From an uncultured Gammaproteobacteria bacterium (GTDB lineage Bacteria > Pseudomonadota > Gammaproteobacteria > JAGOUU01): DNA of 61,348 nt. The translations under genes were made by a program, and so were the position numbers. The stretch covers positions 1 to 61,348 of the forward strand of contig CAYLXL010000006.1 of the NCBI GenBank assembly GCA_964387745.1, in the 5' to 3' direction. The notes beneath the pieces were generated by a model. That model was given only the letters and a program-made list of their open reading frames with translations. It did no database searches and had not been told where the DNA came from. Positions 429 through 5,481 of this stretch are shown piece by piece. Within the stretch, counting starts at the first letter, position 1; the number at the start of each line of letters is the position of its first letter.

Positions 429-1589
429 TTATTCATAAACATCTGCCCTGATTTTCGTAGGTTCTTCTAAAATGTTTAATATTTCGGTAGCGCAATAAAC
501 TTTGTCTCGCTTATTATCATTCGTTTTTTTAATAATACCTGCGGCTTCAAGTTTTTGAACACCTCGCTGGGCGGTGCTATAAACAATACCCAGATCTTCA
601 GCAATTTTATTGGTAGTGAAATAAGGGTTTACAGCTAAATGCTGCACTATCTCCAATGGGACTTGAGAGCCACTGCTTGCAACAGTAATTTTCCATTTAT
701 TTAATAATTCATTAATACGTTCAGCGCGCGATAAAACATCTTCGGATTGAACAGCAATGCCATTGAGAAAATAAATAAGCCACTCGTGCCAACTGCCTTT
801 TGAGCTAACGTTATAAAGTTGTTTATAGTACTCATCGCGTGTTGCTTCAAAAAATGCAGACAAATAGAGCGAAGGTGAAGGCAGCATTCTTTGCTCAACA
901 AGCAATAGCATAATCAACAGTCGTCCAACACGCCCATTACCATCTAAAAAGGGGTGGATGGCTTCAAATTGATAATGACAAAGCGCTATATGGATCAATG
1001 GCGGTAATGATCTATCATGTAAAAAGTTTTCCAACTCTCCTAAGCAATCCATTAAATTGTCAGGGGGTGGCGGCACAAACTTAGCCGTGTTCAACGTACA
1101 GCCGGGAGATCCAATCCAATTTTGACTACGCCTAAATTCCCCCGGTGTTGCATGGGAGCCCCTTACGCCTTGCATTAAGTGCTCATGGATTTCTTTGATA
1201 AGACGTAGTGATAACGGAAGCTCTGTTAATCTACCCAGTCCATAATCAAGCGCCTTGATGTAGTTTTGCACCTCTTGTAGATCGTCTGGGTTTTGCTTTA
1301 CATGGGCACCGGCGTTAGCGGCTAAAATTTCCCTTAGGGTTGCTTGGGTACCTTCAATCTTGCTGGACAGCACAGCTTCTCGGGTAATGAATGGGCGCAT
1401 CAAAAAATGAGGATTGGGTAACTTGACTCCTTCGCGCGCTAATTTTCCAAGCAAGAAATCGGCGCGGGAGAGGCTATTTACCACTGCATTATCCCACTCC
1501 AGTTTAGGTGGCAAACTATGGGGCACAAAGGCATTATACCCTTTAGGTGATTTAACGATTTGTCCTGCGGGGGACTGTTGTATATCCAT
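429..1589 (-). CDS. Fic/DOC family protein, class II (SoFic-like): N-terminal inhibitory helix, Fic core, C-terminal winged-helix-like tail
   Basis: Fic motif HPFLDGNGRVGR. The N-terminal SSKIEG fits the inhibitory [ST]xxxE[GN] motif. 386-aa ORF with an ATG start. Confidence 0.9.
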   Translation of the reverse strand: MDIQQSPAGQIVKSPKGYNAFVPHSLPPKLEWDNAVVNSLSRADFLLGKLAREGVKLPNPHFLMRPFITREAVLSSKIEGTQATLREILAANAGAHVKQNPDDLQEVQNYIKALDYGLGRLTELPLSLRLIKEIHEHLMQGVRGSHATPGEFRRSQNWIGSPGCTLNTAKFVPPPPDNLMDCLGELENFLHDRSLPPLIHIALCHYQFEAIHPFLDGNGRVGRLLIMLLLVEQRMLPSPSLYLSAFFEATRDEYYKQLYNVSSKGSWHEWLIYFLNGIAVQSEDVLSRAERINELLNKWKITVASSGSQVPLEIVQHLAVNPYFTTNKIAEDLGIVYSTAQRGVQKLEAAGIIKKTNDNKRDKVYCATEILNILEEPTKIRADVYE

Positions 1590-1629
1590 GTAACTGGCCT
1601 CTATCTGATTATGCTTATATGATAATCGT

Positions 1630-1659
1630 TATTCTCGAAAACGTCAATATTCGAGAATA
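1630..1659. promoter_or_regulatory. Candidate operator: perfect 10-bp inverted repeat tattctcgaa-N10-ttcgagaata, about 40 bp upstream of the Fic start codon
   Basis: Read directly. The position fits an autoregulatory site, but the function is inferred. Confidence 0.35.
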
Positions 1660-1896
1660 GCGTCGTTTCTTATCACCATTCATGAGAATAAGGGTGCAGG
1701 ATATTATCAGATATCATAGAAATCGATAATAGTGATGATTTTTATCACCCTTTCTGATAATAACTGACAATAACTGGTAGCATTATCATCGAAATCTGCT
1801 GGAATCGCAGTCGGTGAAGTTGACATCCCCCATCATGTTTGGAGGTGGTTATTTAGAAGAGTGCTGACCTCCGCCACCCTACATTCTTCTAACTAT

Positions 1897-1947
1897 GTGC
1901 AAAGCACTTCGTTAGACAAGTCGAACTTCGGGCAGCATGCCAGAATT
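1897..1947. repeat. Repeat A, copy 1 (about 51 bp): covers the last 12 codons, the stop and 15 nt of 3' flank of the NTPase gene
   Basis: Near-identical (3 mismatches) to 4329..4379. Confidence 0.9.
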
Positions 1948-4288: not shown

Positions 4289-4303
4289 ATTACGAATTAC
4301 AGA

Positions 4304-4328
4304 TTTACGTAACTGGTTAAGATCATTC
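4304..4328. repeat. Repeat B copy (tttacgtaactggttaagatcattc), immediately downstream of the CPBP gene
   Basis: Direct repeat of 3552..3571 and 5575..5597. Confidence 0.6.
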
Positions 4329-4379
4329 GTGCAAAGCACTTCGTTAGACAAGTCAAACTTCAGGCGGCATGCCAGAATG
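4329..4379 (-). pseudogene. Repeat A, copy 2: decayed relic of the 3' end of a DUF234-NTPase paralogue, starting 2-3 nt after the stop of the second Fic gene
   Basis: In the NTPase frame it reads SGMPPEV-stop-LV-stop against NSGMLPEVRLV-stop in copy 1 (CGA to TGA). Confidence 0.7.
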
Positions 4380-4380
4380 A

Positions 4381-5481
4381 TCATAGAATTTCCTTCACAA
4401 TAACATCGTAAGGCTCGGCCAGCTTATATTTTCTGGCTTTGTTAGAGGCGTCTACTATTTCTAAAAAACCACTCTCAACCCACTTTTTGCACAGCGCAGC
4501 ATTCGTTCTAGGCTGGAAGCCAAATAGATCTCCTATTTGCTTGGCTGTAACAACATCATATCCCTTAAATAATTCCAAGGCTTTGCGTTGTTTCGGATCT
4601 AAGGTGCGCAAAACTTGCGAATGATCTTTTTCGCCGCTCTCATTGCTTGCAATCATTTGTGCTACAACTTTCTCAAAAGCAAAAGCCATCCCTTCCGTAA
4701 AATATTCCACCCAAGGGGTTATATCGCTTTCCGTCCTTCCAAAATAATAATTGTGAGATGGACCAATGCTAATAGCACGATAATAGCCAAGTAAATTTTT
4801 AGCATAATATTCTTCAAGAGAATACAGGCCTTTTAAATCATACCCACCAAGGTGCAAAATTAGGGTTGTCAGTAACCTGCTTGTTCGTCCATTACCGTCA
4901 TAATAGGGATGAATTGTTGCAAACTGATAATGAGCAATACCAGCGACAATAGGGCATGGTATCTCTTCATTTTCTTTGATCCATGACACTAAATTGCGCA
5001 TAAGACCTGGTACATCTTTGGCTTCTGGAGGCATATAGACGATTGTTCCTGTGCCGCTGTCTTTGATAACATTTTGTCCATCTCGGTAAGGTGTTGGTTT
5101 AATGCGCGTTCTTCCATCGCTCATCACCAGAGCATGCAAAGTTTGAATGATTTTTTCGGTAACGGGATGGTTTTGTGAGGCATATTGTTCAAGCTGAGCG
5201 AGTGCAGCATAATAGCCTTTTACTTCATGCTCATCACGTTCTCTACCGGGGAAATGACCTTGAAGCTGAATAACCTCTTTGATCTCATCAGGTTTGAGCT
5301 GATTACCTTCTATCATCGTCGAATAATGCGTAGTATATAGCTTTGCGGTCTCACGCAGGGAGGCGAGAACTGTAGGATTAACAGGCAGTAACGCAACCTT
5401 TTCCTTTGCAGCCTCAATTCTCATCAGACTTTTGGCAATACCAGATGTTATGCTGTAGACGGGTTTAAAGTTTGTCGGCAT
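4381..5481 (-). CDS. Fic/DOC family protein, class II, second paralogue
   Basis: Fic motif HPYYDGNGRTSR (F to Y at the third position). The N-terminal STMIEG fits [ST]xxxE[GN]. C-terminal wHTH-like region. Confidence 0.9.
   Translation of the reverse strand: MPTNFKPVYSITSGIAKSLMRIEAAKEKVALLPVNPTVLASLRETAKLYTTHYSTMIEGNQLKPDEIKEVIQLQGHFPGRERDEHEVKGYYAALAQLEQYASQNHPVTEKIIQTLHALVMSDGRTRIKPTPYRDGQNVIKDSGTGTIVYMPPEAKDVPGLMRNLVSWIKENEEIPCPIVAGIAHYQFATIHPYYDGNGRTSRLLTTLILHLGGYDLKGLYSLEEYYAKNLLGYYRAISIGPSHNYYFGRTESDITPWVEYFTEGMAFAFEKVVAQMIASNESGEKDHSQVLRTLDPKQRKALELFKGYDVVTAKQIGDLFGFQPRTNAALCKKWVESGFLEIVDASNKARKYKLAEPYDVIVKEIL

Follow-up and report, generated by a model that had tools for sequence, protein, structure and literature searches.

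Two described systems lie closest to the locus considered here. SoFic, a validated defence system, consists of a single class II Fic protein, a toxic AMPylase (PMC12249575), and PDC-S27 is an unvalidated candidate of one gene, which encodes an ATPase with a fused PD-(D/E)xK domain, that came from 'guilt-by-embedding' and was nominated through its association with defence genes (PMC12988326). Relatives of both stand at the left end of a 61,348-nucleotide stretch of DNA from an uncultured Gammaproteobacteria bacterium (contig CAYLXL010000006.1; the whole stretch is referred to below as the window). Four intact open reading frames (ORFs) are found there, at the coordinates that an initial annotation, made from the letters alone, had given to a candidate four-gene defence or toxin module:

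429 to 1589, minus strand: FicA, 386 amino acids, a class II Fic AMPylase of the SoFic type with Fic_N, Fic and C-terminal winged helix-turn-helix (wHTH) domains (Pfam)
1912 to 3396, minus strand: NTPase, 494 amino acids, with an ATPase_2 P-loop and a C-terminal D...ExK region, of the PDC-S27 type
3605 to 4288, plus strand: CPBP (Rce1-like) intramembrane protease, 227 amino acids, with a Pfam match
4381 to 5481, minus strand: FicB, 366 amino acids, a diverged class II Fic protein, SoFic-like by PADLOC model

The spacer lengths reported with these genes (322, 208, 92 and 421 bp) are exact when computed from the ORF coordinates. Based on the comparisons presented herein, we put forward a different reading of the locus, to which we give a probability of roughly 75%, namely that it is a mosaic islet of independently mobile single-gene units at a hotspot and not one four-gene system. 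We propose that each unit would consist of one ORF together with 80–150 bp of its own upstream sequence carrying a promoter-like site, that the units would be two class II SoFic-type AMPylases (FicA and FicB), an NTPase of the PDC-S27 type and a CPBP protease unrelated to them, and that the debris between them would comprise the tail of a hipA gene, an isolated piece of operator and isolated palindromes. The genes would be neighbours because the site accumulates mobile cargo and not because they work as one machine. The combination had been called uncharacterised, and three of its four genes in fact match catalogued single-gene PADLOC entries (SoFic twice, PDC-S27 once), so that the annotation is corrected to SoFic-type for FicA and FicB, PDC-S27-type for the NTPase and an unrelated protease for CPBP, with no new four-gene system.

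Co-occurrence was surveyed in 79 genomic loci encoding relatives of the NTPase (loci are referred to by L numbers), with up to 10 kb fetched per side. A CPBP gene is near the NTPase in none of the 79, and the four-gene set is conserved in no other locus; a four-gene system fails because the four genes show no conserved co-occurrence. The closest view of the CPBP gene elsewhere is a homologue of 89% identity in an unrelated context, with the neighbours MarR-APH-GNAT-CPBP-GNAT, and in the window the gene lies on the opposite strand and has no match among the PADLOC models. That all four genes nevertheless form one integrated defence or toxin-immunity system has in its favour their physical closeness in the window and the contig L080, probably from the same or a near-identical organism, in which an identical CPBP gene lies between NTPase and FicB ends; set against the survey, and against junction debris and repeats that are typical of serial insertion, we consider it extremely unlikely. 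L080 is a 1281-bp Logan contig that breaks within NTPase and FicB, a pattern that is assembler behaviour at sequences repeated in the community. The CPBP protein itself is like other members of the CPBP/Abi family (PF02517) in its Rce1-like Pfam match (46.6 bits, above the cutoff of 22.4) and in its three intact motifs, EExxxR (amino acids 129–134), FxxxH (168–172) and HxxxD (217–221). It differs in having no PADLOC match, in being unlinked to the other three genes and in showing nothing that points to abortive infection, and we propose that it would have no demonstrable part in Fic or NTPase function.

The NTPase has no constant partner in the 79 loci. When neighbours within 4 kb are clustered, Fic genes appear in 10 loci, APH-like kinase genes in 7 and a metallophosphoesterase-like gene directly downstream in 6, and GNAT-like, HipA-like and AbiE-like genes appear in fewer. 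The names of the non-Fic neighbours come from reading their sequences, backed where the same families carry Pfam labels in other loci.

The nucleotide comparison with these loci resolves the region into three separate, sharp-ended blocks of homology, one covering FicA (429 to ~1733), one the NTPase and one FicB (4381 to 5564). The NTPase block has its 3' edge at 1944–1952 in 28 of 30 loci and its 5' edge at either 3465–3518 or 3529–3558, the latter in 15 of the 30, and homology of the FicB unit to L010 starts at 4381. The CPBP gene and the spacers have no nucleotide match in the compared NTPase loci. Each Fic gene is accompanied by an upstream segment:

1590 to 1733, minus strand: FicA upstream segment, which travels with FicA; promoter-like site at 1647–1619
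5482 to 5564, minus strand: FicB upstream segment, which travels with FicB; promoter-like site at 5546–5518

Upstream of FicA, nucleotide homology extends to 1732–1733 in L022 and L074 and to ~1659 in four other loci, and upstream of FicB homology to L010, L056 and L058 stops at 5563–5568. For the NTPase, the 160 nt 5' of the gene fall into one similarity cluster in 57 of 73 loci, and the sequence 3' of its stop codon is unique in 58 of 76. A sigma-70-like site (10/12) lies upstream of the ORF in each homology block, the region-wide total of such sites being not above chance. The earlier description of the region as modular and recombining rather than as a fixed operon is supported.

The units are also shared far beyond the lineage that carries the window. 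Copies of the NTPase and Fic units with 85–90% nucleotide identity occur in other phyla, mostly in protist-associated lineages; NTPase homologues at 78–93% identity occur in many phyla, and at 85–93% protein identity they are found in Oligoflexales, Chlamydiota, Rickettsiales, Holospora, Francisellaceae, Patescibacteria, Melainabacteria and Dependentiae genomes. Clusters built at 90% identity span several phyla for both Fic proteins, with 226 members for FicA and 94 for FicB, whereas EF-Tu, EF-G, RpoB, photolyase and rhodanese of the window (core genes, 7310–57346) form single-member clusters at 90% identity among ~15 billion proteins, and no named locus has close versions of the core genes. 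Because the Fic clusters cross phyla and the core proteins are singletons, the comparison indicates recent acquisition of the island genes, by horizontal transfer, in a lineage without a sequenced close relative. An accessory region with defence- or toxin-type genes had been anticipated in the initial annotation and is supported as one acquired horizontally, and the annotation's contrast between the island and the remainder of the window holds in origin and not in GC content.

The place of insertion is defined by the genes to the right of FicB:

5903 to 6676, minus strand: TauE/SafE gene, the right flank of the island

The closest available relatives of the flanking genes (window 5903–7188; 77% for rhodanese, 73% for TauE) carry a rhodanese-TauE-Lactamase_B operon. 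Next to it come core genes in L084 and L085, and in L086–L089 a prophage-like element that encodes a serine recombinase, a LexA-like repressor and a terminase. In the window there is no trace of Lactamase_B, and homology to the relatives stops at the TauE stop codon; for these reasons we place the right border at ~5902, beyond the previously assigned end at 5481, and the site immediately downstream of the rhodanese-TauE operon is predicted to be an insertion hotspot. The island also extends beyond the left window edge. A tRNA-targeted island was considered and rejected, as the sole tRNA is a tRNA-Trp at 61152–61227 and Rfam finds nothing in 1–6500. No recombinase-sized ORF is seen in or beside the island, ORFs to 9471 having been read as sequence and the remaining window not domain-scanned. 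Overall, the islet resembles defence islands and hotspots in that several defence-type genes and a toxin-antitoxin remnant share one chromosomal site, occupied in relatives by other mobile DNA, whose content varies among genomes. It differs from them in its very small size, in holding no integrase or transposase among the window ORFs that were read (to 9471), in a conserved 39-bp palindrome that marks some edges and in units shared at 85–90% nucleotide identity across phyla whose bacteria are mostly protist-associated.

Of the two Fic proteins, FicA is the closer to SoFic of Shewanella oneidensis (SO_4266; PDB 3eqx and 3zcn), with which it shares domain architecture, the SxxxEG motif and the HxFxDGNGRxxR core. 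Its catalytic motif is intact (HPFLDGNGRVGR, amino acids 212–223, nt 921–956) and fits HxFx(D/E)GNGRxxR, and its N-terminal inhibitory motif is SSKIEG (amino acids 75–80, nt 1350–1367). The Pfam Fic_N match has E = 1e-23, wHTH matches in Pfam span residues 312–369, the PADLOC SoFic profile is matched with E = 5e-121 (residues 17–375 on positions 5–359 of 361), and the protein aligns full-length with the SoFic structures 9tc4, 3eqx and 3zcn (residues 36–369, E = 1e-34). FicB likewise has a catalytic motif (HPYYDGNGRTSR, amino acids 191–202, nt 4876–4911), in which Y replaces the F of the motif, and an inhibitory motif, STMIEG (amino acids 54–59, nt 5305–5322), and thus the catalytic and inhibitory motifs listed for both proteins in the initial annotation are present, as is the divergence it noted between them (25% identity over 300 amino acids). 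In FicB, Fic is matched in Pfam and Fic_N is not, the PADLOC SoFic match is weaker than that of FicA (E = 7e-53, residues 34–354), and the closest PDB relatives are other Fido proteins, 8uqu and 4rgl.

At the 3' end of FicB lies a 38-codon ORF (4268–4384, minus strand) whose start overlaps the FicB stop codon (ATGA), which is mostly made of a 54-nt repeat described below and is reminiscent of the 47-amino-acid AS1 antitoxin downstream of E. coli SoFic. It is probably spurious because homology to FicB relatives goes no further than the stop of FicB, and the Fic genes showed no conserved AS1-like antitoxin ORF. Upstream of FicA, the hexamers GATAAT/ATTATC occur five times in 1590–1911 (at 1621, 1703, 1725, 1756 and 1782), compared with ~0.4–0.7 expected and a count reached by none of 500 shuffles, in a pattern that resembles a Fur box or an iterated operator.

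The NTPase resembles PDC-S27 in its profile match, its ATPase_2 P-loop, its invariant D...ExK residues and its occurrence as a single gene. It matches the PADLOC model PDC-S27 (PDLC04984) with E = 1.2e-82, residues 11–452 aligning on positions 4–443 of 474, and Pfam ATPase_2 (PF01637) with E = 7e-14, and it has a Walker A motif GRRRIGKS (nt 3265–3288) and a Walker B motif IILLDE (nt 3040–3057). Toward the C-terminus, all three residues of D406...E420-x-K422 (nt 2131–2181) are invariant in 24 homologues. An AlphaFold model, for which the input alignment held 24 sequences 77–92% identical to the query, has a predicted local distance difference test (pLDDT) score of 75–94 in the N-terminal P-loop domain and below 50 beyond residue 200; D406, E420 and K422 are on predicted adjacent strands in a region of the model with pLDDT <50. 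A profile search of the PDB returned only 2fna, over the ATPase region, leaving the C-terminal part unmatched, and the DUF234 domain assigned in the initial annotation finds no Pfam match even at E <= 10 in the C-terminal 256 residues. The window NTPase differs from PDC-S27 in that it lacks the native stop and has a 12-residue tail, and in that it lacks the metallophosphoesterase-like gene of seven related copies. This gene (MKLTWITDVHLNF...) is the commonest 3' neighbour of near-identical NTPase copies, ~20 bp past the stop codon; it is found in L006, L008, L009, L010, L014, L015 and L023, degraded in several of them, and is absent from the window. Ancestrally, the NTPase and the metallophosphoesterase-like gene may have made up a unit of two genes. 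The NTPase sequence exactly as it stands in the window is not on record. In L029, L075, L076, L045 and L062 a further, diverged paralogue of the NTPase (26–67% identity), or a fragment of one, lies within a few kb of the first.

With these components, we propose the following for each unit. Each Fic enzyme would be kept off by its own N-terminal inhibitory glutamate helix, as in its family, and once released, for example by phage infection, would AMPylate cellular targets and bring about a growth stop as reported for SoFic. The NTPase would work by itself and combine an ATP-dependent sensor with a PD-(D/E)xK-like nuclease, by analogy with its family.

Several observations weigh against this reading of the locus, and those that concern the pairing of the NTPase with Fic also favour a narrower proposal, in which a SoFic-type Fic protein would pair facultatively with the NTPase as a two-gene system (with, for example, the NTPase as sensor or regulator and Fic as effector, or with one modulating the toxicity of the other) and the window would hold one such pair and further genes beside it. 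Within 1 kb of the NTPase the density of Fic genes is about fivefold that at 3–10 kb (~5 versus ~0.7–1 per 100 kb, p = 0.01), 16 of 18 Fic genes share the orientation of the NTPase, Fic is its commonest neighbour (10 of 79 loci within 4 kb), and the order NTPase then Fic on one strand recurs in L018, L031, L056 and L058, as in the window. What makes us doubt the pair is that a Fic gene lies within 10 kb in 15 of the 79 loci, 64 having none in the available flanks, and that clade, side and distance are all variable: at least three clades are represented among the partners (FicA-like at 72–98% identity, ~42% identical to FicA, and FicB-like), which stand on either side of the NTPase, 150 bp to 9 kb off. 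The two genes moreover have separate promoter-like sites and homology blocks, both match single-gene PADLOC entries, and close relatives of FicA and FicB occur without the NTPase, as in L093 and L095, which carry a FicA and a FicB relative, respectively, at >=90% identity and have no NTPase or CPBP gene within 8 kb. We therefore regard a facultative two-gene system as improbable; the enrichment of Fic beside the NTPase fits mobile cargo clustering in narrow hotspots. In L095 itself, the FicB relative and an APH gene (6711–11360) are bracketed by genes or fragments of IS5-type transposases (HTH_Tnp_4, DDE_Tnp_1), which suggests composite-transposon carriage of the FicB relative in at least one genome.

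The remaining points of this kind concern the completeness of the islet and the identity and function of its units. Positions 1 to ~5902 are the right-hand part of the islet, its left end lying beyond the window, and as to the transfer vehicle, reference plasmids gave only weak matches to the Fic core and phages gave none. FicA scores 170.8 bits in the NCBIfam SoFic equivalog model NF046030, below the curated cutoff of 550, and is best classed as a family-level SoFic relative and not an equivalog, and FicB aligns on the SoFic structures over the catalytic core only (residues 139–237). The wHTH assigned to the NTPase has no Pfam match and is putative, as is the PD-(D/E)xK nuclease fold in this protein, for which the case draws only on the motif, secondary structure and the published PDC-S27 description. 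The defence role of the units would follow from family membership only, and the carriers of the units are mostly intracellular and protist-associated, where Fic can act on the eukaryotic host.

The last two points lead to the possibility that the units are not antiviral and are instead selfish addiction-type or host-interaction genes in the mobile pool of protist-associated bacteria, with the Fic proteins as toxins or effectors that act on a eukaryotic host or stabilise mobile DNA. Near-identical copies do concentrate in Rickettsiales, Chlamydiota, Legionellales, Dependentiae, Holospora and similar lineages, the neighbours are toxin-antitoxin genes (HipA-like, AbiE-like), insertion sequence elements, APH-like kinases and GNATs and not classical defence systems, and wild-type SoFic is toxic alone in E. 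coli (PMC12249575). This is countered by the SoFic architecture of FicA, by domain searches that show no mark of a secreted effector (secretion signals were not searched), by the protection in plaque assays reported for SoFic (PMC12249575) and by the nomination of PDC-S27 through defence-gene association (PMC12988326), and we judge a non-antiviral role to be unlikely, at the milder end of that term. In either case, the exchange of genes at 85–90% nucleotide identity among phyla of mostly intracellular, protist-associated bacteria raises the question of what there is to be defended against in such a setting.

The part of the mosaic islet in which regulation can be read most directly is the NTPase leader, a fragment of which recurs alone at the right border:

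3396 to 3485, minus strand: NTPase promoter and predicted operator, with four TGCTCA/TGAGCA half-sites and a TTGACT -35 box
5861 to 5889, unstranded: solo fragment of an NTPase-type operator (site 1 region), adjoining the TauE stop codon

The half-sites, TGCTCA(A/T) and T(T/G)GAGCA, stand at -83, -58, -30 and -5 from the NTPase ATG in 78 loci, around a TTGAC(T) box. Their density in the leader is 23 times that elsewhere in the loci, and they are retained where the protein is only 56–68% identical (upstream 125 nt, L001–L079). An RNA hairpin was rejected in favour of a protein operator because only the TGCTCA cores are conserved, the extended arms showing no co-variation, and because the predicted transcription start lies within the second unit; the NTPase mRNA would be nearly leaderless. 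As the NTPase is the sole gene always present with the operator, autoregulation is the simplest interpretation, and the NTPase probably represses its own promoter through the TGCTCA/TGAGCA operator. The conserved promoter and operator provide a direct handle on the regulation of the unvalidated PDC-S27 family. The solo fragment forms a 29-nt repeat pair with 3457–3485 in the NTPase leader, and 26–27 nt of the copy at 5861–5889 are 100% identical to the region upstream of the NTPase in L018 and L020.

The junctions between the units carry further repeats and a gene remnant:

1897 to 1950, unstranded: 54-nt junction repeat, copy 1, which supplies the last 12 codons and the stop of the window NTPase
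4329 to 4382, unstranded: 54-nt junction repeat, copy 2, which abuts the FicB stop codon
211 to 249, unstranded: degenerate copy of a 39-bp palindrome; window positions 181–252 match L034 14556–14627, which holds the L034 palindrome
292 to 330, unstranded: perfect 39-bp palindrome, ATGTCCTTTAGGT-N13-ACCTAAAGGACAT, a solo copy 3' of FicA; hairpin z = -7.5
~3499 to 3537, unstranded: palindrome copy at the 5' edge of the NTPase unit
5568 to 5693, plus strand: 3' remnant of a hipA-like toxin gene, ~42 codons, between FicB and TauE

The non-coding repeats that had been noticed between the genes are thus real and comprise the 54-nt direct repeat, the 29-nt repeat and the palindromic element, and a further pair, D2 (931–978 and 4886–4933), was discarded as a non-coding repeat since it is merely homologous coding sequence of the Fic core. 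The copies of the 54-nt repeat are 93% identical, with 0 matches expected by chance, and coincide precisely with the 3' junctions of the NTPase unit and of the FicB unit; at the former, the repeat has replaced the native NTPase stop and added 12 residues (the SGMLPEVRLV tail). It is absent from the 79 loci, and in metagenomes the only match is a chance 20-mer inside a T4-like phage gene; because it is in no other sequence searched, we treat it as a local recombination scar. We rejected three other interpretations of it: a piece of a tRNA or att site, or a known RNA (there is no tRNA close by, and Rfam gave no match); a terminator (weak folding, z = -1.5 and -2.2); and a widespread junction element (missing from all 79 loci). 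The long structured spacers described previously are confirmed in part, in that those of 322 and 208 bp fold better than dinucleotide shuffles (z of about -2.5 to -3) and those of 92 and 421 bp do not.

The palindrome is, in contrast to the 54-nt repeat unique to this genome, a recurrent element. Its family, ATGTCCyyTAGGT-N13-ACCTArrGGACAT, comprises 13 copies of fixed 13-13-13 geometry from 11 sources in different phyla (the window, L006, L007, L009, L011, L013, L015, L034, L043, L052 and L058) and was absent from viral contigs and Rfam. It is usually 100–190 nt 5' of differing cargo, namely NTPase, hipB-like, FicA-like and AbiEii-like genes, and coincides with one class of homology-block edges. 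The degenerate copy in the window is 81 bp from the perfect copy, like the paired copies in L011 and L052 (pairs 81–91 bp apart). As a mark at the edges of several cargo genes, the palindrome could be a regulatory or a recombination site. If the latter, the NTPase, Fic, HipBA-like and AbiE-like genes could be undescribed promoter-bearing single-gene cassettes that move among protist-associated bacteria of many phyla, with the palindrome as their recombination site and the islet as an array, an idea that we hold to be doubtful. The islet does share with integron cassettes its compact single ORFs with sharp ends, a palindrome at some edges and the appearance of the same cargo in many contexts. 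It differs from them in having no intI and no attC consensus, in a palindrome that is upstream with the promoters and not 3', in units with their own promoter-like sites and mixed orientation (CPBP being inverted) and in the 54-nt repeat found in this genome alone, and an integron array was rejected because no recombinase-sized ORF is seen in or beside the island among the ORFs to 9471, the 54-nt 3' repeat is missing from the 79 loci and, a chance match aside, from metagenomes, each unit has its own promoter-like site and CPBP is inverted.

The hipA remnant matches the C-terminus of the L034 HipA (tblastx E = 5e-13; blastn 89–91% over 56–62 nt). A hipBA locus split by the island was considered and set aside, as window positions 181–252 are a palindrome-family copy and not a remnant of the region upstream of hipB, and the hipA tail stands alone. 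Finally, a GC-rich segment at 1788–1874, 3' of the NTPase, accounts for a local GC bump (0.43) at 1001–2000 and is 83–87% shared with L074 and with the sequence just 3' of an unrelated Fic gene in L031.

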